This document shows positions 52,885-63,531 of a stretch of DNA of 64,000 bases, in pieces. Source of the DNA: Gammaproteobacteria bacterium (lineage in GTDB: Bacteria; Pseudomonadota; Gammaproteobacteria; JAJFKG01). The stretch spans positions 2,090,503 to 2,154,502 of the forward strand of contig OZ220716.1 of NCBI GenBank assembly GCA_965116795.1, in the 5' to 3' direction. The translations under genes and the position numbers were made by a program. Each line of letters begins with the position of its first letter. Within the stretch, counting starts at the first letter, position 1. The notes under the pieces are model-generated. The model ran no database searches and was not told the origin of the DNA. It saw only the letters and a list, made by a program, of their open reading frames with translations.

Positions 52885-53718
52885 TTAATAACTTACTTTA
52901 ATTTTTTTCTGTGTGGTTTTTGTTTTTTTGGTGGAATGAATTACTTTTTTTGTTGACTGTGTTTGTTTAAATGATGTTTTTGAGGATGAAGTATTCGTTA
53001 TGGTTGATGATTTTGTTGATTTACTTTTACTGATGTGTTGTTTTTGTTTAAATGCAGTTTTTACATGCTTATTGGTTGGTCGGATTACTGTTTTATGTAA
53101 AATTGGCCTATTCACTGGTTTAATAACAGTCTGTTGTACAATTGGTGTGGTTACTGGCTGGATAATTGTTTGCTGTATAACTGGCCCACTTACCGGTTTA
53201 ATCACTGTTTTCTTAACAACAGTCGTCTTAACGGATTCTACCAGGGTATTATCTGGTACCACACGGGTTTTACGACGATCAAATAATACTAATACCCGTT
53301 GACCATTAGCTAATGCGGGTTGTTTACCTTGAACAACCGCAACCGTTTTACTGTTATCTAATTTGATAATGTATTGTAATGCATCACGTGTTGTCAGTGA
53401 CTTATCAATATAATATCCAGCGATACCACCAACTAATGCACCACCTAATGCGCCTACCACATTGGGAGCATCTCTACTACCAATAAATGAACCACCAACA
53501 CCACCAACGACTGCACCAATCGGTGCTCCGACATCCGTGCCTCCTTCCAATGTGACCTGACGTATATCTACAATCACACCTTGATATACATTGGCCTTCA
53601 TCCCTGCGTCATAAGCTGTATAACTATCCGGATTAGTCGGTGGCATACAGCCTGTTACTAACCAAGCAAATCCAAGCCCAATGATGACGTTGCGTACCCA
53701 TACTAATCTTGTATTCAT
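52885..53718 (-). CDS. SlyB/Pcp-like glycine-zipper outer-membrane lipoprotein with repetitive basic tail
   Basis: Lipobox VTG-C, GAVVGGVGGS...GALGGALVGGIAG, C-terminal TVIKPV repeats. Confidence 0.8.
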   Translation of the reverse strand: MNTRLVWVRNVIIGLGFAWLVTGCMPPTNPDSYTAYDAGMKANVYQGVIVDIRQVTLEGGTDVGAPIGAVVGGVGGSFIGSRDAPNVVGALGGALVGGIAGYYIDKSLTTRDALQYIIKLDNSKTVAVVQGKQPALANGQRVLVLFDRRKTRVVPDNTLVESVKTTVVKKTVIKPVSGPVIQQTIIQPVTTPIVQQTVIKPVNRPILHKTVIRPTNKHVKTAFKQKQHISKSKSTKSSTITNTSSSKTSFKQTQSTKKVIHSTKKTKTTQKKIKVSY

Positions 53719-53886: not shown

Positions 53887-55071
53887 ATGCCTATTACCCT
53901 ATCTGAACGTGTACAAGCCATCAAACCATCCCCTACCCTGGCAGTGACTAACAAAGCCGCTGAATTACGCGCCAGTGGCAAAGACATTATTGGGCTGGGC
54001 GCTGGCGAACCGGATTTCAATACCCCTGAACCAATTTGCCAAGCCGCTATCGACGCCATCAATGCCGGTTTTACTAAATACACCGCTGTTGATGGCATTG
54101 TTGAACTAAAGCAAGCCATCATCGATAAATTTAAACGAGACAATCAATTAGATTATGCGTTAAATCAAGTCTTAGTTTCTTGTGGTGGTAAGCAAAGTTT
54201 TTTTAATCTATGCCAGGCACTATTAAATCCAGGCGATGAAATCATTATCCCCGCACCGTATTGGGTATCTTATCCAGACATGGCGATACTCGCTGGTGCC
54301 AAACCGGTTATTTTACCAACCACTATTGATAACGATTATAAAATCACACCGGAACAGTTAAACGCCGCTATCACTAAACGTACACGTTTAGTTGTATTAA
54401 ATAGTCCATCTAATCCATCTGGAAAGACATACTCATCAACAGAACTGCGTGGATTGGCTGAGGTATTACGTGCACATCCAACTGTCTTGATTGCAACCGA
54501 TGATATGTATGAACATATCTTATGGACAGATGAACCCTTTGCTAACATTGTCATGGCAGAGCCGCGGCTATATCCACAAACTATCGTACTCAATGGGATT
54601 TCAAAAGCATATGCAATGACAGGCTGGCGTATTGGGTATGCCGCTGGCCCAGCTGAATTAATTGGCGCCATGAAAAAAATACAATCGCAAAGTACTTCTA
54701 ACCCGACATCGATTTCACAAGCCGCGGCAGTAGCTGCACTAAATGGTGATCAACGTATCGTGGTTACTATGTGTGATGCCTTTAAACAACGCCATGATTT
54801 TGTTTTCAATCAATTATCACACATCCCAGACGTACGGTGTCTGGCATCAGATGGTACGTTTTATAGTTTTCCGGATGTATCAGCATGCATTCAGCGCAAA
54901 GGATTAGCCGATGATGTGGCTTTTTGTGACTATTTGCTTGCTGAGGCAGGACTTGCTGTGGTGCCTGGTTCTGCATTCGGTAATCCAGGCTGCATTCGTA
55001 TTTCATTCGCAACCAGTATGGCAATACTAGAAGACGCAATGACACGCTTAGCACGCACCATTACTGCTTAA
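53887..55071 (+). CDS. aspC: Class I PLP aminotransferase (aspartate aminotransferase type)
   Basis: GEPDF, NSPSNPSG, DDMYE, SKAYAMTGWRIGY. Confidence 0.9.
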   Translation: MPITLSERVQAIKPSPTLAVTNKAAELRASGKDIIGLGAGEPDFNTPEPICQAAIDAINAGFTKYTAVDGIVELKQAIIDKFKRDNQLDYALNQVLVSCGGKQSFFNLCQALLNPGDEIIIPAPYWVSYPDMAILAGAKPVILPTTIDNDYKITPEQLNAAITKRTRLVVLNSPSNPSGKTYSSTELRGLAEVLRAHPTVLIATDDMYEHILWTDEPFANIVMAEPRLYPQTIVLNGISKAYAMTGWRIGYAAGPAELIGAMKKIQSQSTSNPTSISQAAAVAALNGDQRIVVTMCDAFKQRHDFVFNQLSHIPDVRCLASDGTFYSFPDVSACIQRKGLADDVAFCDYLLAEAGLAVVPGSAFGNPGCIRISFATSMAILEDAMTRLARTITA

Positions 55072-55139
55072 TGGCAGCAATGCTTGACCTAGTTTCAGGG
55101 AGTCAGTAGTATAGCCGCCTCAGTTGGCACTAATATTAT

Positions 55140-55215
<76 letters not shown>

Positions 55216-55216
55216 C

Positions 55217-56233
55217 TTAAATTGTGCGCAAATGTGCCTCGTAAGAAATCGGCATTTGTTTAGCTAGATTGTCGTTAGCAGCAGAATCGGTATCTTTGAG
55301 CAACGCATAAAAATAATTATCATCTGCATTTTGCAATAATGTTACATCATGCAAAATCCAATCTGATGCAGGACATAATCTATCTTGCCATACTAACATA
55401 TGTGGCATCTTCTTACGATTTGCAATTGATTCTGCCATAGCATGTAGCCCTTCATCTTCGGCAAGCTCTTGAAATGAACGCATGTCTTCTTCAGTTCTAA
55501 CAATCAACTCAAAACGGTTACCCTTACTATCTAGCAATAAATAGCTACCTGAATTATCAATCAAATAAAACTCAACAATATTGTGTTTTGCAATAATGCG
55601 ATTAAATAAATCGATAAATGCTTCACTACACAATAAACTTTTTCTGTTAGGCTCGTTAGCACCCAGCATATCAAACATACTTTGAGATAACTGAGTAAAA
55701 TACTCGATATTTAATTCCTGCACATAATCGGTTAATTTTTCAAAGCAATTATAATCTTCTTTTTTCACAAAACGTTGGATATTTGTTTGGTTAAACGCAT
55801 CTACTGCAAAGTCGTTATCAGCTTCTCCGGTTAATATTATTTTTTGATAAGGTAAATCAGATAACTGTTGGCAAAATTCAAGCCCATTCATTTCTGGCAT
55901 TGAATAATCAACAATCAATACAACCGGCCGATCAAAGCGTACAGCTTGACTGTAAATTTCTCTGCATACTGACGCCACATCAACATCAATCGATAGACTG
56001 GATAAGCTAGTTTGATCAGGTGACATCGAGATATGCTTAGCAAATAATGCTTTGACCGCATCACCCTGCTGCTTCAGATAAGCAAGTGCTTCTTTAGGTG
56101 AAGTAAACGCATCACACTGAAAGTCAGCACCAAATGCTAACAACAAGTGATCTGAAAAATCTGGGTTGTCATCGATGATGATAACTTTTGTCGGAAAATA
56201 ACAGCAGGGGATACTCGTTTTAAACATGCACAT
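55217..56233 (-). CDS. LqsR-like response regulator
   Basis: SIPCCYFPT.VIIIDD, inserted receiver domain, VDYSMPEMNGLEFC, KIILTGEAD, IVEFYL...GSYLLLD output domain. Confidence 0.82.
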   Translation of the reverse strand: MCMFKTSIPCCYFPTKVIIIDDNPDFSDHLLLAFGADFQCDAFTSPKEALAYLKQQGDAVKALFAKHISMSPDQTSLSSLSIDVDVASVCREIYSQAVRFDRPVVLIVDYSMPEMNGLEFCQQLSDLPYQKIILTGEADNDFAVDAFNQTNIQRFVKKEDYNCFEKLTDYVQELNIEYFTQLSQSMFDMLGANEPNRKSLLCSEAFIDLFNRIIAKHNIVEFYLIDNSGSYLLLDSKGNRFELIVRTEEDMRSFQELAEDEGLHAMAESIANRKKMPHMLVWQDRLCPASDWILHDVTLLQNADDNYFYALLKDTDSAANDNLAKQMPISYEAHLRTI

Positions 56234-56293
56234 TACTCCATTAATTGTTGAAATCGAAGCGATTTCTCAGTTGTTAGAACAGTAACCTAACAG

Positions 56294-57694
56294 CTATGAC
56301 ATCGCATTTTGCTCCCAATCGGTGGCTAAATCAAGTACTGGGAATGCAAGAATAAATCGCGTATATTTACCATATTCTGACAGACAAGTAATATCCCCAC
56401 CGTGTTTCTTCATGCTCATTTTACAAAAAGCCAATCCGATTCCGGCACCATGTGCAGTGTCTTTAGTAAAAAATTTATCGAAAATATGGGATAAACTCTC
56501 AGGTTGGATCCCTTTTGCAGTATCTTCAAAAAATAACTTATTAAACGTTTCTCCTCGCTGTAACTGTATCTTGATGTTACCACGACCCGTCGCTTTAATA
56601 ATATATAGCGCATTTTTAATTAAGTTAAATAATACTTGAATCACTAAGTTAGCTGATCCTGAAAAAACAAAATCAATCTCAGGATCCCATGTTATTAACT
56701 CACGCTCATTGCGAGAAAATGGGTATACATTCAGTGCATCATCAATACATTTTGCAATTGAACACACTTGGAAATTAGCACGCTCAATATTTTTAAAAGA
56801 AAGATTTCCCAGTAGCATATCAATAACTAGCATTGAGTGATCAACTTGCAAACTAATGGTATTAGCACCTCTTGTGATTACATCAATATGCTGCTTACTA
56901 ACAGCTGGAATATCCAACTTGTGTTGCTTAGCAATATTGTATGTTTCTGTTAACTTAGGTAGATAACTTTTAAGTCCCTTTGCCAACAATTTAATTGACT
57001 GCAATGGTGTTCTTAATTCATGTGCAATGCTCGCACTCACAAGACGCATACTATCTGTGCGTGCTTTCTCAGCAGCCAATGTTGTATCTTGATAAATGGT
57101 TTTTCTTCTAGAAAAGATAAGACCGATCACGATGCTAGTTACAAATGTATTAATAATATCTACAGCAGTCAATGTACCTGGATTAAACACAAAACCGATT
57201 GGTGAAGTTAAACTAAATACTAACCACGCTAGTGACATTCCAATCGTCAATAAAACTGCATATAAAATCCAATCGGTTATGATGATCATCAAAATGACTT
57301 TTGCTAACCAATTTAAAATCCAAGGGGCCGCCATGTGGTTTTTCAACATCATTAAAGTGAAAAAGTATGGCAACGCAAATAAAAGTGATAAATACCAACA
57401 TAACGGTAACCAGCGACGAATGCTTTTTGGCCAGTAATTTTTTAATGCCAAGCAAGCGTGCATTACAGACATGGTGATACGTAGACCAATACTATCATAC
57501 ACTGCCTTATCTTTATAAAGACCAATATTAATTAAATAAAATAATAAGATTACTGTTAAACCAAAAACACTAAATAAGATAACAATATTTTCCGTCTTTA
57601 CAAATTGTACCTGTAAAAAGTTATCTACCTTTTTCCATAGTATTTTTAAAGACACACATAACTCCGTTGCTGCACTAGACTTTAGATAATTCAA
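56294..57694 (-). CDS. CqsS/LqsS-like membrane histidine kinase (no receiver domain)
   Basis: About six TM helices with YWP...LP..W...LPYFF..M.L.N. H-box IAHELRTPL, N-box NLIKNA, G2 GAGIGLAFC. Confidence 0.85.
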   Translation of the reverse strand: MNYLKSSAATELCVSLKILWKKVDNFLQVQFVKTENIVILFSVFGLTVILLFYLINIGLYKDKAVYDSIGLRITMSVMHACLALKNYWPKSIRRWLPLCWYLSLLFALPYFFTLMMLKNHMAAPWILNWLAKVILMIIITDWILYAVLLTIGMSLAWLVFSLTSPIGFVFNPGTLTAVDIINTFVTSIVIGLIFSRRKTIYQDTTLAAEKARTDSMRLVSASIAHELRTPLQSIKLLAKGLKSYLPKLTETYNIAKQHKLDIPAVSKQHIDVITRGANTISLQVDHSMLVIDMLLGNLSFKNIERANFQVCSIAKCIDDALNVYPFSRNERELITWDPEIDFVFSGSANLVIQVLFNLIKNALYIIKATGRGNIKIQLQRGETFNKLFFEDTAKGIQPESLSHIFDKFFTKDTAHGAGIGLAFCKMSMKKHGGDITCLSEYGKYTRFILAFPVLDLATDWEQNAMS

Positions 57695-57811
57695 TATAAA
57701 TCAAGGAAAATAAAGTCTAGCAAAACTACAATACACATGCTAGATTAAGAGAATTAATACTATTAATAAGCAATTATTAGGATTTGGCACTACGCATTAA
57801 GGGGACACAAC

Positions 57812-59290
57812 ATGCAACAGTTTGACGTAATTATCCTAGGAAATGGTATACTTGCCATGTCGAGCGCGCTTGAACTTACCAAATCAGCACCAAATATACG
57901 CATTGCAATTGTAGGACCATCTAGTCAAAAGGGTAGTGCGACATTGGCCGCAGGTGCTATGTTGGGTTGCTTCAGCGAAGTAACCGAAGCTACGTTATTG
58001 TCCATGTATGGTCGCGCTGTTTTAGACATGTCATTCAAAGCTCTTAAAGTATGGCCAGATTGGCTAAATGAATTAAATCAATACTTACCTGAACAGTTAA
58101 AAATCAGTACCCGACCCGGGACATTTATTATTTCAAACACAGAAACAGCACAATATGAAAATGATAACTTTAATGCGATTTTAACTGCATTAAATCAATA
58201 TAACGCACCTTTTGAAACTGTCGATCCGAATAATATTCCTGGCCTATCTCCAATAGAAACATGTCGTCCATTCAAATCACTATTTCTGCCTAAGGAAGGT
58301 GCTATTAATCCTGCTGAATTACTCAATGGATTGTCTGCTTTCCTTCGACAGAAAAATGTGGTTATGATTGACGAAATCGCCGTTGATTTTTCTTATTCTT
58401 CAGAAAAAGTCAAACATGTCATTACTGATAGCGGTACTACCTTAGTGGGTGATAAGATTTTGCTAGCTGCAGGCGCTTACTCGCAAGCGTTACTCGACAA
58501 AATACCCGATATAGCAAAACGTATTCCTAAAGTATTCGCTGGTCTCGGTTGCTCGGCCATATTTCGTAACACTCGCAATAAAATACCAGTACAATCAGTT
58601 ATTCGAACCCCTAATCGTGCCAATGCATGCGGAGTTCATATATTGCCAACCGATAAACAAGCAGACTACTTGTATATGGGCGCATCGAATACTTGCATAT
58701 TAGGGCCAACAGTAGAACCCAGGATCCGAGATGTTTACTACCTATTAAAACGAGCAATGGAGCAAATTAATCATACTTTGCATAATAAGAGTATGGTTAA
58801 ATACCAAGTTGGCAATCGGCCAGTTACCATGGATACATTTCCACTGATTGGGCGCACGTCGATGAAAAACCTGTGGGTATTAACTGGTACATATCGCATT
58901 GGCCTTCAATTAGCACCCATTCTTGCTAAATCTATTGCTGACAGCATGCTGAACTCAGCATCTAGCATTACTGATCTTAATGTAGATTTGTTTAAACCAG
59001 AACGACGCCTGATCCAAGCATTTACCAAAAAAGAAGCTATTGATATTTTTGTTAAACAACATTTTGGCACTGGATATGAACACGAAATGCTTTTACCCAA
59101 AATGGGATGGGAATCAATGATTATAGATGCCATTCATCAAAAAGCTGCAGATATTTATGATAAATTAGAAACAGATATAGCAATATATCCAGACATATTA
59201 AGTATGATTGATCAAAATAGAGAATTGCTACCTATTCTTAAGGACTATTTAAAAACTCAAGATTATGCTTATAGTCTAGCTGCAGCGTAA
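57812..59290 (+). CDS. FAD-dependent oxidoreductase, glycine oxidase / D-amino-acid oxidase family, with C-terminal extension
   Basis: GNGILA dinucleotide motif, SATLAAGAML, LAAGAYS, GNRP...D..PLIG, TGTYR.GL.LAP. Confidence 0.85.
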   Translation: MQQFDVIILGNGILAMSSALELTKSAPNIRIAIVGPSSQKGSATLAAGAMLGCFSEVTEATLLSMYGRAVLDMSFKALKVWPDWLNELNQYLPEQLKISTRPGTFIISNTETAQYENDNFNAILTALNQYNAPFETVDPNNIPGLSPIETCRPFKSLFLPKEGAINPAELLNGLSAFLRQKNVVMIDEIAVDFSYSSEKVKHVITDSGTTLVGDKILLAAGAYSQALLDKIPDIAKRIPKVFAGLGCSAIFRNTRNKIPVQSVIRTPNRANACGVHILPTDKQADYLYMGASNTCILGPTVEPRIRDVYYLLKRAMEQINHTLHNKSMVKYQVGNRPVTMDTFPLIGRTSMKNLWVLTGTYRIGLQLAPILAKSIADSMLNSASSITDLNVDLFKPERRLIQAFTKKEAIDIFVKQHFGTGYEHEMLLPKMGWESMIIDAIHQKAADIYDKLETDIAIYPDILSMIDQNRELLPILKDYLKTQDYAYSLAAA

Positions 59291-59304
59291 TCACTTAACT
59301 TACT

Positions 59305-60387
59305 TTATAATAGTATATTGTTTAATATTTCTTTACTTTTAATGTAGCAGCTTTCATCAGCTTCGACTAAATTAACATGGCCTAACTTACGCCCTGGCCG
59401 AGGGGATTTCCCATAGGCATGATAATGCGTTCCTGGCACAGATAAACACGATGTTGCTGGCAGCATGTCACCAATACAATTTATTAATAAACAATGCCCC
59501 ATCTGTTTCGTACTACCCAATGGCAAATCAAATAGAGCACGCAAGTGATTTTCAAATTGGCTAGTATACGCACCTTCAATGGTCCAATGTCCAGAGTTAT
59601 GCACACGAGGTGCTATTTCATTAACAATTAATTGGTTCCCATCATAAAAAAATTCGATTGTAATCACCCCAACATACTGCAGTTTATTTAAAATTTTTAT
59701 CGCATAATCCTGCGCCGCTTCTTGCAATGCAGGATTATCAAATGGAGCTTCAGAAAAACGCAAGATCCCCTGCTCATGGTGATTGCGAACAAGTGGATAA
59801 AACACTGTGTCACCGTGTTTATTACGCACAGCAATAATTGACAATTCACATTCAAACGTAACCAATTGCTCTACGATTAATGATTGAGTTTGCAGTCTGT
59901 CATAACTATTTGATATATCCTGTTCTGAGCGAATAACACATTGTCCTTTACCATCGTATCCAAACCGCCTTGTTTTTAGTATTGCAGGCAACCCCAGTTC
60001 AGCCACTGCTTGCACTAACTGCGCTTGCGTATCAACACAGATAAAAGAAGCAGTAGGAATGGTTAACGATGCCAAAAATGATTTTTCATGCCCTCTATCT
60101 TGAGTGATTTCCAATGCCGTTAACGATGGATAAACAGGTTTTTTGCTAGCAATATAATTAGCGCAAGCCAATGGAATATTTTCCGTTTCAAAGGTAATGC
60201 AATCTACCGTTGCTAAAAACTGATCCAGTGCTGATGTATCGGTAAAATCAGCGGTGATCAGTTCGGTGACTTCGCCTGCACATGCAGTTGAATCGGTATC
60301 GAAGCAAACCGTATTAATTGCTAAGGGATAGGCTGCTAATGCCAACATTCGCGCTAATTGACCACCACCTAAAATGCCTAATCTCAT
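59305..60387 (-). CDS. purK: N5-CAIR synthase
   Basis: GILGGGQLARM, GYDGKGQ, NEIAPRVHNSGHWT, RPGRKLGH. Confidence 0.96.
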   Translation of the reverse strand: MRLGILGGGQLARMLALAAYPLAINTVCFDTDSTACAGEVTELITADFTDTSALDQFLATVDCITFETENIPLACANYIASKKPVYPSLTALEITQDRGHEKSFLASLTIPTASFICVDTQAQLVQAVAELGLPAILKTRRFGYDGKGQCVIRSEQDISNSYDRLQTQSLIVEQLVTFECELSIIAVRNKHGDTVFYPLVRNHHEQGILRFSEAPFDNPALQEAAQDYAIKILNKLQYVGVITIEFFYDGNQLIVNEIAPRVHNSGHWTIEGAYTSQFENHLRALFDLPLGSTKQMGHCLLINCIGDMLPATSCLSVPGTHYHAYGKSPRPGRKLGHVNLVEADESCYIKSKEILNNILL

Positions 60388-60972: not shown

Positions 60973-63531
60973 TCATGATTTCGTGGATAAATTTTTAATA
61001 AATAACCAGCGTCCGTTAACTAACGATTGCAGTAACTGATGCCGTTTAAGTATTGCGTCGATTTTTTGTTGGCTAGCATCGATGAATACACACAGTCTTT
61101 TCGGTTCATGTATACGTTTACTCTGATGAGGCAATCCGTATTTTAAATCACTTTGATTACCTTCAATAACACCGATAGTAGCTAACACATTATGGATAGC
61201 TTTATTGCCGCTCGCATAATGTTGTGGATCAACTGCAGAAAAATAATACTGACTATTAATCCAATGAGCGACAATCATTGGTCCTAATAAAATTGCTTCC
61301 AATATACTGCCATCGACATCACGCTCTTCCTCATAGGAATGTAAGAATACTCGCCTTTGTAGATTCAATGATTGGGTAAGTCGACGTGGTGCAATGATAA
61401 AAGCAGCATTATTGGCTAAACCCAATTCGGGAAGTAATTCTGCCCAATCACAACTGCGTTTCAATACATGTTGATTACCTGGTAGCGAGCGTAAACGTTC
61501 ATACCGTAAGTGCTCACCTGCAGTCATCGCATCTTTGCAAATAGCACGAAATGTGTGTTGTTGTGATGGATTAAGATTGGCAACATCAACATACCAATTG
61601 ATGTGGTCAGTGGTAGTATCATGACACGCAGCAACAAACACAGTTGCACCGGGTATAGTAATGCTTTGTTTTTCTAATGCCTTTCTCACATCGGGTTGAT
61701 TTAATAGTTGGCAAACAATGATGGCATTACTCATACCACTATTACCACCACACGCACCACAATCTAACGACGCCTGATAAGGATTGTTTTTAATGGTAGC
61801 AGTATGTCCACATATCACTACAAACTCAGAAAAATTCTGAGTTAATCCTATACCATTAAGCAAATTAATGGCTATGTTTACCCTATTATCCAAATCAAGG
61901 GTATCCAGTTTAAACTGTGGCAATCGGCTAGCAGTTAGTTGTTTAGTATTAACCTGCTGAACCCGACGCAACACTGTATTTGCATAATTTTTAATGATCA
62001 ACACTAATGCAAACCAAAACCCTAACATTTCATATAATGCAAACGGCGCCAACAATGTTTTTCTAGTGGCATCAATCGAATTGACCAGTGCAGTTGCTGA
62101 AGTATGCAACATAGGTGATGTTGTATTTAACATCTCAATTAATAGTGTCGGTTCAATCAGCGCAGGACATTGACAAGTGATTTTGTGTTGGTACTTATCA
62201 TTGAGTTTAGCCGCAACCCCAAAAAAGCCAGCAAATCCAAATGTTTCATGATTACCAACCTGTTCTATATGACGTCGAAACCCTTCACTGCGCACATCAA
62301 TACAAAACACCCACTGTGCTGTTGCTGGCGTTAGCAAATCATCACGTCGTTGTGTTGGATCTATTGTGCTACGTTGTTGGTGAGTTTCATTCTTTTTAGC
62401 TAATAACGTTTGATATAGTGGTTGGTGATAATTCATTTCATAAGCCCGCTGCCACAACCAAGTCAATTGATGCACTGACAGATCAGTTCGTTTAATTAAC
62501 GTCTCAGCATCAATTGCTTGTGTGCTGAGTTGTTGACAAGCATGATTAACGCAATCCACTAACATGTTATGGATAGCATTATCCTCAGCAATATAACAGT
62601 CCGGTTGATAGCGTAGATAAAAGCCATTAAGCTGTTTAGCATGGGTTTTTAACCAAAACACTTCATAAGCAAGCCATATTGCGATGATTTCAATAACATG
62701 CACCTGCGAATTAACATAAGGATTATTGGGATACTGTTGCTGCCATTTACTATAACCACACCAACCTTTAAGCTGCCAAACAATGGCAAACAAATACTGG
62801 CGAATACATTCCGTTGGCACCGATAATTCATTTAGCAAAGACAATATAAACGTTTCTACATGATTAGAATATTGCATCAAATATGATTTCCAGCGCTTAT
62901 TTTTATGCAACATCATCACATGCCACAGATTGAAAAATTGATGATTTGAATCATATGTATCATTTATTGACTGCTTAAAATAGGTCATCATCTTTTTTTG
63001 AAACGTGGTTGGATTAACATAAGACGCCAACCAATCTAAGCACTCATCCTGAATAGATGCTAACGCATCATCATAACCATAAGAGGCTATCTGGGCAGAA
63101 AATAAAATACTGTTGCACGTTGATGGATCGTTTTTTATTAGTTTCAAGCATGTAATTAATTTTTTCTGATACGATTTTCCAGTCATCAAATTGTAGAGCA
63201 ATTGTGGATACAGTTTAACAACAGCATCCTCCTCCGATTTTTTGAATAAGGATCGATTTAACTGAGCACAATGCTCTGCAATAGCCTGATGGATAGCCAC
63301 ATCGCTAATTCGTCCTTCATTGTAGTAACCCCAATAAGTTGCTATTGGCAGCAGCATTTGTATGTTAGTCATTGAAAGTAATGTTTGACTAACAACCTGC
63401 TCGATAGATTTATCAACCAAATCCCATAGTGGATTAGTAGCAACAAATTGTTGCAACGGCCAAGTTGTTGGAATGTGTTTTAGTATTTCTTCAATGACTG
63501 GCGACAGATCATTTGTTTCAGACAATGACAT
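60973..63531 (-). CDS. DUF2309 / DabA-MpsB-like soluble subunit of an inorganic carbon pump
   Basis: WPLQQFVATNP, putative Zn ligands in FCIDVRSE, CGH and LDCGACGG, plus RRVFLHSY and HEP.RL. Confidence 0.88.
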   Translation of the reverse strand: MSLSETNDLSPVIEEILKHIPTTWPLQQFVATNPLWDLVDKSIEQVVSQTLLSMTNIQMLLPIATYWGYYNEGRISDVAIHQAIAEHCAQLNRSLFKKSEEDAVVKLYPQLLYNLMTGKSYQKKLITCLKLIKNDPSTCNSILFSAQIASYGYDDALASIQDECLDWLASYVNPTTFQKKMMTYFKQSINDTYDSNHQFFNLWHVMMLHKNKRWKSYLMQYSNHVETFILSLLNELSVPTECIRQYLFAIVWQLKGWCGYSKWQQQYPNNPYVNSQVHVIEIIAIWLAYEVFWLKTHAKQLNGFYLRYQPDCYIAEDNAIHNMLVDCVNHACQQLSTQAIDAETLIKRTDLSVHQLTWLWQRAYEMNYHQPLYQTLLAKKNETHQQRSTIDPTQRRDDLLTPATAQWVFCIDVRSEGFRRHIEQVGNHETFGFAGFFGVAAKLNDKYQHKITCQCPALIEPTLLIEMLNTTSPMLHTSATALVNSIDATRKTLLAPFALYEMLGFWFALVLIIKNYANTVLRRVQQVNTKQLTASRLPQFKLDTLDLDNRVNIAINLLNGIGLTQNFSEFVVICGHTATIKNNPYQASLDCGACGGNSGMSNAIIVCQLLNQPDVRKALEKQSITIPGATVFVAACHDTTTDHINWYVDVANLNPSQQHTFRAICKDAMTAGEHLRYERLRSLPGNQHVLKRSCDWAELLPELGLANNAAFIIAPRRLTQSLNLQRRVFLHSYEEERDVDGSILEAILLGPMIVAHWINSQYYFSAVDPQHYASGNKAIHNVLATIGVIEGNQSDLKYGLPHQSKRIHEPKRLCVFIDASQQKIDAILKRHQLLQSLVNGRWLFIKNLSTKS

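Follow-up and report, generated by a model that had tools for sequence, protein, structure and literature searches.

A sensor kinase of the LqsS/CqsS family and an LqsR-family regulator are encoded in tandem in a 64,000-nucleotide stretch of contig OZ220716.1 of a gammaproteobacterium (GCA_965116795.1; this whole stretch is hereafter the window). The two proteins form a two-component pair, and its conserved divergent neighbour is a flavin adenine dinucleotide (FAD) enzyme, termed the oxidase below, of the Orf1 / N-formimidoyl fortimicin A synthase family. The flavoenzyme likely produces or modifies a signal of a new kind, which the kinase would sense. We consider it possible, though short of probable, that it makes the kinase ligand itself, an amidine-type compound formed from glycine and an amine, and so fills the place of LqsA or CqsA. 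To our knowledge, alpha-hydroxyketone signalling through LqsS/CqsS is known with a single kind of synthase. In this locus a receptor module of known type appears to be joined by an enzyme partner that is both new and recurrent, and the finding would amount to more than that if the enzyme proved to be a synthase.

Layout of the locus

The source genome (G000) is a single contig of 2.45 Mb with 41.2% G+C, and its GTDB order contains three genomes in all. The features of the locus, in window coordinates, are as follows.

55140-55215, plus strand: tRNA-Asn (GTT), found with ARAGORN; module boundary
55217-56233, minus strand: LqsR-family response regulator, 338 amino acids (PDB 6sy9 match; Pfam Response_reg, 46.9 bits)
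55907-55909, minus strand: codon of the regulator receiver Asp109, checked in the sequence
56294-57694, minus strand: LqsS/CqsS-family sensor histidine kinase, 466 amino acids from a TTG start (HisKA and HATPase_c)
57020-57022, minus strand: codon of kinase His225
57311-57322, minus strand: kinase motif W125-I-L-N128 (residues 125-128) in the fourth transmembrane helix (TM4), from kinase alignments
57695-57811: divergent intergenic region between kinase and oxidase, 117 bp with the TTG start
57812-59290, plus strand: Orf1 / N-formimidoyl fortimicin A synthase-family FAD enzyme, 492 amino acids (PDB 7xqa; Pfam DAO, 114.5 bits)
58628-58630, plus strand: codon of oxidase Cys273
59078-59080, plus strand: codon of oxidase Glu423

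The original prediction, made from the window alone, described a tandem kinase and regulator ending 1 bp from tRNA-Asn with a divergent oxidase gene, and the open reading frames (ORFs) and the tRNA are arranged as it described. A single base (55216) separates tRNA-Asn from the regulator stop codon, the regulator lies 60 bp downstream of the kinase with both on the minus strand, and the gap to the oxidase is 117 bp with the TTG start. An alternative kinase start is the GTG at codon 14 (57653-57655), which is placed six bases after GGAG and would widen the gap to 156 bp. The GGAG, together with the observation that kinase homologues align only from residue ~19-40 onward and leave the first ~18-40 residues unmatched, suggests that this GTG is probably the true start.

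The pairing of flavoenzyme and kinase recurs

The original prediction proposed asking whether the linkage of oxidase, kinase and regulator recurs in other genomes, and it does. In a class sample of 400 scored genomes (oxidase threshold E <= 1e-30), the oxidase was found in 7 genomes, an LqsS-like kinase in 42, and LqsA in 11. Four of the six other oxidase genomes (G281, G091, G058, and G334) carry an LqsS-like kinase (33-38% identical) beside the oxidase. Kinase and oxidase are divergent in G281 and G091 with a glutathione S-transferase (GST) gene between them, followed by LqsR and a PBP4-type gene; they are also divergent in G058, where the regulator is on the far side. In G001, which belongs to the same family as the window genome, the oxidase is accompanied by a major facilitator superfamily (MFS) gene and the kinase is not nearby. 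The oxidase of G186 begins 27 nt from a contig end, and its adjacency cannot be judged. We considered whether this oxidase and the best kinase of that genome could be neighbours across the contig break and rejected this, since that kinase lies 2.7 kb from the end of its own contig, next to a methyltransferase gene.

A species-genome collection contained 398 stretches with oxidase relatives, of which the best 80 were examined, and a kinase was present at five of these 80 loci. Three are the G281, G091, and G058 genomes; the other two are the Alphaproteobacteria Ca. Odyssella thessalonicensis and Ca. Paracaedibacter symbiosus, in which LysR, oxidase, and kinase genes lie on one strand. Metagenome contigs yielded 129 stretches, the best 80 of which were examined. 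In 11 of these, an LqsS-like membrane domain is encoded divergently no more than 1.5 kb from the oxidase; 59 loci extend for at least 1300 nt upstream, and they include 10 of the 11. The regulator is also present at five of the 11 and LqsA at none. Besides the window, the linkage was thus seen at 17 loci, comprising six genomes of Gamma- and Alphaproteobacteria and 11 metagenome loci, and LqsA is encoded at none of them.

Three arrangements occur among the linked loci: divergent, divergent with a GST gene between, and co-directional with the oxidase followed by the kinase. The receptor is either a kinase accompanied by LqsR or a hybrid kinase to which a receiver is fused (detected with Pfam in L158 and L217), and enzyme plus receptor is the sole constant unit, as it is for cqsA-cqsS. 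Most linked pairs share 33-50% protein identity with each other, across two classes. This pattern indicates that the pairing of oxidase and kinase is not due to chance. Many of its hosts, going by their names, belong to amoeba-associated lineages (Legionellales, Ca. Odyssella, and Ca. Paracaedibacter). In G334, an F-box and ankyrin-repeat gene (L118:9662-10753) is located two genes downstream of an LqsS-LqsR pair; eukaryote-like genes of this kind are typical of amoeba-dwelling bacteria.

The flavoenzyme belongs to the Orf1 family

The oxidase matches PDB entry 7xqa ('N-formimidoyl fortimicin A synthase') with an E-value of 7.7e-84 over residues 3-465 of 492, and the C-terminal domain is covered. 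True glycine oxidases among its PDB matches have E-values of 1e-14 or worse. We assign the enzyme to the Orf1 / N-formimidoyl fortimicin A synthase family on this full-length alignment. Its N-terminus is an FAD-binding GxGxxG motif and it has no signal peptide. The glycine/D-amino-acid-oxidase family named in the original prediction agrees with the Pfam DAO fold, but the enzyme is not a plain oxidase and belongs instead to a family that transfers its product onto an amine. 7xqa and kindred entries are Orf1 of the BD-12 cluster, which builds the formimidoyl group of an antibiotic (PMC10156733, available part). Orf1 oxidises glycine at its FAD site, holds the product on Cys281 as an N-O-S adduct, and passes it on, as a formimidoyl or an iminoacetyl group, to a pre-formed acceptor amine; transfer requires C281 and E426, and oxidation requires R342 (PMC10156733, same part).

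The glycine site of Orf1 (A54, G55, A56, M57, H284, Y294, R342, and R368) corresponds to A47, G48, A49, M50, H276, Y288, R336, and R362 of the window enzyme, and the transfer-site residues C281 and E426 map by alignment to C273 and E423 (roles from the available part of PMC10156733). An alignment of 30 family members shows no variation at the equivalents of G55, A56, M57, C281, H284, Y294, R342, and R368, Ala or Ser at that of A54, and Glu at that of E426 in 29 of the 30, the remaining row ending at a contig edge. The acceptor site differs: the acceptor-binding residues E312, E313, and F316 of Orf1, as described in that part of PMC10156733, are R306, D307, and Y310 in the window enzyme, and among the 30 family members positions 306 and 307 differ by lineage. 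Because position 306 is not Glu and both positions vary between lineages, the window enzyme is expected to use an acceptor other than the aminoglycoside of Orf1. By analogy with Orf1, it would perform glycine-dependent N-formimidoyl or N-iminoacetyl transfer. The oxidation of an aminoketone, offered as an example in the original prediction, is not the favoured chemistry, since Orf1-family enzymes oxidise glycine and transfer the product to an amine (PMC10156733, in its available part).

A housekeeping glycine oxidase (ThiO, or an enzyme of glycine or D-amino-acid catabolism) that lies beside the kinase by chance would be compatible with the Pfam DAO fold, with ThiO as the second-best NCBIfam-type resemblance, and with the glycine oxidases among the weak PDB matches. 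We disfavour this explanation and regard it as very improbable. The oxidase scores 110.1 bits against the ThiO model TIGR02352, well below the cut-off of 250.8, and no real ThiG was found in the source genome, where the best match covers 51 residues at 23.6 bits. Orf1 matches much more strongly, in an alignment that takes in the C-terminal domain specific to its family; both the Cys and the Glu of the transfer site are present, and the recurrent adjacency excludes chance. Placed relative to ThiO and natural-product enzymes, as the original prediction recommended, the window enzyme is a relative of Orf1 and is not ThiO.

The gene neighbourhoods of the wider family are relevant to its function. 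The largest neighbour gene cluster around oxidase relatives comprises 16 loci from Pirellulaceae, Streptomycetaceae (Streptomyces among them), Archangiaceae, and Paenibacillaceae. The two cluster members that were scanned, both from Pirellulaceae, are proteins of the nonribosomal peptide synthetase type with AMP-binding, carrier, and thioesterase domains. The Orf1-like enzyme family is biosynthetic, and we count this in favour of signal synthesis.

An oxidase homologue from Legionella moravica (L025, 5983-11308; 42% identical) has no kinase at its locus. It heads a row of genes consisting of a DOPA-dioxygenase-family gene, a Trp/Tyr permease, and a catechol-type O-methyltransferase, with a LysR gene divergent from it, and a dioxygenase-like gene is also found beside the oxidase in a metagenome-assembled genome (MAG) of Coxiellaceae (L074). 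These neighbours could point to an aromatic amine as the acceptor. An MFS transporter gene is adjacent to the oxidase or one to two genes from it in L014, L021, L023, and L149, and is not found there in the window.

LqsA and CqsA are absent from the source genome

The original prediction noted that no synthase is adjacent to the pair and asked whether an lqsA exists elsewhere. LqsA is absent both from the locus and from the whole 2.45-Mb genome: no LqsA/CqsA (NCBIfam NF005526) was found, and the best match, BioF, reaches 147.7 bits where the cut-off is 428. PF00155 occurs in three genes of the genome, namely an aspartate aminotransferase-type gene (located in the window), an alanine aminotransferase-type gene, and BioF, which lies inside a bioA/B/F/H/C/D cluster and exceeds the bioF cut-off.

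Five of the seven genomes with the oxidase-kinase pairing have no NF005526 match over the cut-off (G000, G091, G334, Odyssella, and Paracaedibacter; completeness by markers is 100% for G091 and 96% for G334, and is not given for the two Paracaedibacteraceae). G281 and G058 carry a separate canonical lqsA-lqsR-lqsS cluster elsewhere in the genome. Their oxidase-linked pair is therefore a second, distinct system and not a remnant of the first.

The receptor pair and its TM4 signature

The regulator matches the solved Legionella pneumophila LqsR (6sy9) with an E-value of 5.2e-52 over residues 6-313, which includes the non-receiver C-terminal part. Its Asp109 aligns with the Asp of the LqsR VVVDYAMP stretch, which we take to be D108 of LqsR. 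Full-length homology and the receiver Asp both indicate that it is a member of the LqsR family. The kinase has approximately six hydrophobic segments in residues 37-193 (hydropathy), and its transmembrane part alone (residues 1-205) retrieves relatives in searches. Over residues 19-462 it is 36% identical to the G281 kinase that is encoded between the LqsA and LqsR genes. We place it in the LqsS/CqsS family on the combination of membrane sensor domain, HisKA, and HATPase_c, and because it aligns over its whole length with this LqsA-adjacent kinase; none of the solved structures covers the kinase membrane domain. The original description of an Lqs/Cqs-type pair agrees with both sets of matches.

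The source genome encodes a second Lqs-like pair (G000:C1:72281-74387; L002, L007), consisting of a 334-amino-acid regulator (61% identical) followed by a 348-amino-acid kinase (55% identical). This kinase is the sister of the window kinase in the tree (support 100). It has no W-x-x-N motif because its first four membrane helices are missing. A third LqsR-like gene (G000:C1:452154-453071; L008) is an orphan and distant, encoding 305 amino acids that are 28% identical over residues 1-246.

We compared TM4 in an alignment of 55 kinases, 18 of them oxidase-linked (the window, six genomes, and 11 metagenome loci). All 18 oxidase-linked kinases have W-x-x-N, whereas the 10 LqsA-linked kinases have W..S (7), S..S (2), or S..A (1) in the same column, so that the last position is Ser in nine, Ala in one, and Asn in none. 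The original prediction of a conserved Trp with Asn in place of Ser therefore holds across the oxidase-linked set; in the window kinase, W125-I-L-N128 has no Ser at the fourth motif position. In V. cholerae CqsS, W104 and S107 of TM4 discriminate hydroxyl from amino at C3 of the ligand, according to the available part of a review (PMC3376566); our column was equated with these residues by motif and helix, V. cholerae CqsS being outside the alignment. The claim that V. cholerae CqsS reads WAMS could not be checked against that protein, and an LqsA-linked homologue (L123) reads WAMS in this column. A search with the transmembrane part of a CqsA-linked hybrid kinase retrieved 24 proteins, some of them auto-annotated as CqsS by JGI and none of them the Vibrio protein, and the N-terminus of L139 did not settle the CqsS residue numbering.

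These data bear on the possibility that the pair listens for alpha-hydroxyketones or similar lipids of other bacteria, as has been proposed for lqsA-less Legionella species, with a metabolic or detoxifying oxidase that travels along with the pair or is expressed under its control. Receptor-keeping bacteria without LqsA are commonly read as eavesdroppers, and 16 kinase-regulator pairs in our class sample have neither LqsA nor the oxidase. Co-transfer of the genes is plausible, since the G+C content of the module is 36.2%, compared with 41.2% genome-wide, and the module begins at a tRNA where synteny with a same-genus genome (G002) breaks. The available part of PMC8023197 reports that in 20 of 58 Legionella species lqsR and/or lqsS are retained although lqsA is absent, and that of PMC10653808 describes LqsR-family regulators rewired to other systems (PhcX). 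Hitch-hiking does not predict, however, that the linkage would last at 33-50% identity between most linked pairs, in two classes and three gene orders, and all 18 oxidase-linked receptors have another residue in place of the TM4 Ser seen in LqsA-linked ones. LqsR has no known DNA-binding output (PMC10653808, in its available part), and the regulator is therefore not expected to act on the divergent promoter directly. We consider a listener pair unlikely.

Phylogenies and other enzyme partners

We reconstructed a first kinase tree from 44 rows with a quick search, a second kinase tree from 43 rows with four long-branch LqsA-linked rows omitted, and an oxidase tree from 30 rows. Both kinase trees leave out the G216 kinase, which was missed by the ORF filter, and the partial G085 kinase; the second also leaves out 12 rows that are short or on long branches. 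In the first tree, a starred group (96) of 30 rows takes in every oxidase-linked kinase and a single LqsA-linked row, which is on a long branch; the other nine LqsA-linked rows are outside it in five smaller groups with unresolved mutual order. In the second tree, the remaining six LqsA-linked rows are grouped together with three unlinked rows, and the oxidase-linked kinases form several groups interleaved with methyltransferase- and CADD-like-linked ones. The backbones of both trees are unresolved, and beyond the label changes forced by starred branches the trees speak neither for nor against a single origin of the oxidase-linked kinases.

In the oxidase tree, linked and unlinked enzymes are intermixed within the proteobacterial, chlamydial, and planctomycete rows, and the actinobacterial and myxobacterial clades contain no linked member. 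Two pairs match between the oxidase and kinase trees, G281 with G091 and Odyssella with Paracaedibacter. Distances between oxidases correlate with distances between their linked kinases (Mantel r 0.545, 14 pairs, reached by 2 of 5000 permutations); the test covered 14 of the 18 linked loci, with G334, L150, L169, and L223 left out as having an oxidase fragment or being cut by a contig end.

The 44 kinases of the first tree differ in genomic context: 10 are linked to LqsA, seven to the oxidase, five to an S-adenosylmethionine (SAM) methyltransferase, five to a Haem_oxygenas_2-type enzyme, and two to a radical SAM gene, while 11 have none of these and four are of unknown context. The radical SAM gene was identified as the housekeeping gene EpmB (438 bits; cut-off 369) and was therefore rejected as a partner. 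The methyltransferase-linked kinases (L112, L114, L119, L129, and L131) come from five families of the class and lie directly beside a class I SAM methyltransferase of ~300-345 amino acids, whose family is unnamed; all five have x-x-x-N in TM4. One oxidase-linked metagenome locus (L220) also encodes such a methyltransferase (L220:1457-2410). At L133, L140, L141, L143, and L144, LqsS-family kinases, several of them hybrid, lie beside a Haem_oxygenas_2 / CADD-like iron enzyme of ~230-245 amino acids, which is likewise a recurrent partner.

Proposed function

We propose the following sequence of events. The oxidase would oxidise glycine at its FAD site and pass the product to Cys273, from which a formimidoyl or iminoacetyl group would be moved onto an amine, as in Orf1. 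The amidine-type product would exit the cell and bind the six-helix sensor domain at TM4 (W125-x-x-N128), and binding would shift the phosphorylation balance between kinase His225 and regulator Asp109.

Several observations weigh against the flavoenzyme being the source of the kinase ligand. The kinase is absent nearby in 75 of the 80 genome loci and 69 of the 80 metagenome loci of the oxidase family, so the enzyme works without the receptor; kinase-free loci are found in Streptomyces, myxobacteria, Pirellulaceae, Paenibacillus, Lysobacter, a Chlamydiota MAG, L. moravica, and a Coxiellaceae MAG. Conversely, most LqsS-LqsR pairs sampled have neither LqsA nor the oxidase, and in G334 the oxidase is a 179-amino-acid remnant beside an intact kinase. 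No gene for making the acceptor amine was found in the locus. A LysR gene, the usual neighbour of a substrate-induced metabolic enzyme, adjoins the oxidase in Odyssella, Paracaedibacter, and L. moravica. On the kinase trees, whose backbones are unresolved, the starred branches require no fewer than 2-3 label changes, and the linked genes do not appear as a single clade in the kinase or oxidase trees. The Mantel signal comes partly from two close pairs and is inseparable from shared ancestry, and kinship alone could give much of it. Finally, the TM4 column was equated with that of CqsS by motif and helix alone, and the five methyltransferase-linked kinases, as well as some unlinked kinases, share the Asn. 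This residue may characterise a clade, or a larger non-LqsA branch, rather than this ligand alone.

The same linkage of oxidase and kinase would be expected if the enzyme edited or quenched a signal. The kinase would then sense an amine compound from the host amoeba, from neighbours, or from the bacterium's own metabolism, which the oxidase would activate or inactivate by formimidoylation or iminoacetylation. Orf1-type enzymes act on a pre-formed amine acceptor (PMC10156733, in its available part), and the locus contains no acceptor-making gene; the LysR gene beside the oxidase in three lineages and the amoeba association of many hosts point the same way. Editing has no candidate substrate, however, and because the oxidase has no signal peptide the compound would be needed inside the cell, whereas the kinase senses in the membrane. 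Genomics does not separate editing from synthesis, and we give editing a low probability. The remaining probability belongs to explanations other than those listed here.

A broader generalisation, which as a whole we find doubtful, can be drawn from synthesis by the flavoenzyme. Orf1-type flavoenzymes would constitute a new class of autoinducer synthase, and their amidine-type signals would be read by the W-x-x-N branch of LqsS/CqsS, spread by gene transfer among amoeba-associated Gamma- and Alphaproteobacteria. LqsS/CqsS would then be a platform that is paired with pyridoxal phosphate (PLP)-dependent LqsA, FAD-dependent Orf1-like enzymes, SAM methyltransferases, or CADD/haem-oxygenase-like iron enzymes, each with its own signal chemistry.

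Comparison with known systems

The Lqs system of Legionella is organised as lqsA-lqsR-hdeD-lqsS, plus the orphan lqsT. The source genome shares its regulator family, its kinase family, and the separation of kinase and regulator into two genes, and the paralogues described above (the second pair and the third LqsR-like gene) recall LqsS/LqsT. The source genome differs in having no LqsA and no hdeD between the genes, which are in tandem with the kinase first. In addition, TM4 of the window kinase is W-x-x-N compared to S-x-x-S (L111, L124) or S-x-x-A (L110) in Legionella-type LqsS, and the linked enzyme is an Orf1-family flavoenzyme.

With the Vibrio Cqs system (cqsA-cqsS), the locus shares the two-gene logic of an enzyme and a six-helix membrane receptor, as well as the TM4 Trp, and the oxidase-linked hybrid kinases of L158 and L217 have a fused receiver like CqsS. 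The window enzyme is FAD-dependent and predicted to use glycine, and is not a PLP acyl-CoA transferase. Asn replaces the Ser that helps select a C3 hydroxyl or amino group, as described in the available part of PMC3376566. The system as a whole lacks the PLP synthase by which Lqs/Cqs systems are defined, and it also lacks the TM4 Ser.

Relative to Orf1 of BD-12 (7xqa), the window enzyme has full-length homology, the glycine-site residues, and equivalents of Cys281 and Glu426. It differs in its ~36-40% identity (judged from relatives), in the Arg306 that replaces Glu312, and in its setting, with a sensor kinase as partner and no surrounding antibiotic gene cluster.

Two further cases resemble the locus in part. 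Legionella species without lqsA ('all ears') have Lqs receptors without LqsA (PMC8023197, available part), and PhcX of Ralstonia is an LqsR-family regulator joined to another kind of synthase, the methyltransferase PhcB (PMC10653808, available part). The locus differs from both in that its receptor pair has its own recurrent enzyme partner. 'Oxidase' and 'FAD' have no occurrences in the available text of PMC8023197, and a linked flavoenzyme is not mentioned in that of PMC10653808. A published link of Lqs/Cqs receptors to such an enzyme was not found in a partial literature search, outside which lie Table S5 and Fig. S5 of PMC10653808 (LqsR contexts).

If the enzyme is indeed the synthase, some 'orphan' LqsS/CqsS receptors would own a chemically different signal, which offers an alternative to eavesdropping. 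The pairing comes with a receptor change at a position tied to head-group choice. The Orf1 family, so far known from antibiotic tailoring, would gain a role in signalling, and a ligand class would be indicated for receptors of hard-to-study intracellular and amoeba-associated bacteria.

Intergenic region and genomic setting

The 7-bp inverted repeat that the original prediction noted between kinase and oxidase is present, as TCTAGCA (57716-57722), N15, and TGCTAGA (57738-57744), but does not appear to be a meaningful site. Perfect 7-bp inverted repeats with loops of 3-30 nt turned up in 816 of 5000 shuffles of the 117-bp gap and in 111 of 547 117-bp pieces of the window; with at least three G/C per arm, they turned up in 106 of 5000 shuffles. 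No common motif was seen among 11 homologous intergenic regions. We rejected the repeat as an operator, its frequency being within chance and the repeat not conserved.

A 9-bp perfect inverted repeat is also present (57676-57684 / 57711-57719, TAGACTTTA / TAAAGTCTA, 26-nt loop), again within chance. Its right arm overlaps the left arm of the 7-bp repeat, and its left arm lies inside the kinase ORF with the TTG start and inside the gap with the GTG start; a CTAG core occurs three times (about 57675, 57717, and 57740). Scans of 55000-59500 gave 15 promoter-like sites compared to 18.0 expected, with no sigma-70-like site above shuffles, and three terminator-like sites compared to 3.1 expected.

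Housekeeping genes flank the module: the aspartate aminotransferase-type gene precedes the tRNA, and purK-purE lie downstream, beyond the oxidase. The corresponding stretch of G002 (L228), a genome of the same genus, has tRNA-Ala/tRNA-Ile after the aminotransferase gene and tRNA-Asn, as in an rRNA operon; the module is not located there and synteny ends at tRNA-Asn. The oxidase and kinase were not seen in G002, a 90%-complete assembly. Acquisition of the module by transfer is plausible from these comparisons.

Two further genes of the window were annotated. An 852-amino-acid DabA, a probable inorganic carbon transporter subunit (646.7 bits), is encoded at 60973-63531, downstream of purE-purK. 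A predicted lipoprotein of 277 amino acids with a glycine-zipper domain is encoded at 52885-53718, and its C-terminal half consists of repeated V-I-K/Q-P-V-type units and Ser/Thr/Lys-rich sequence.

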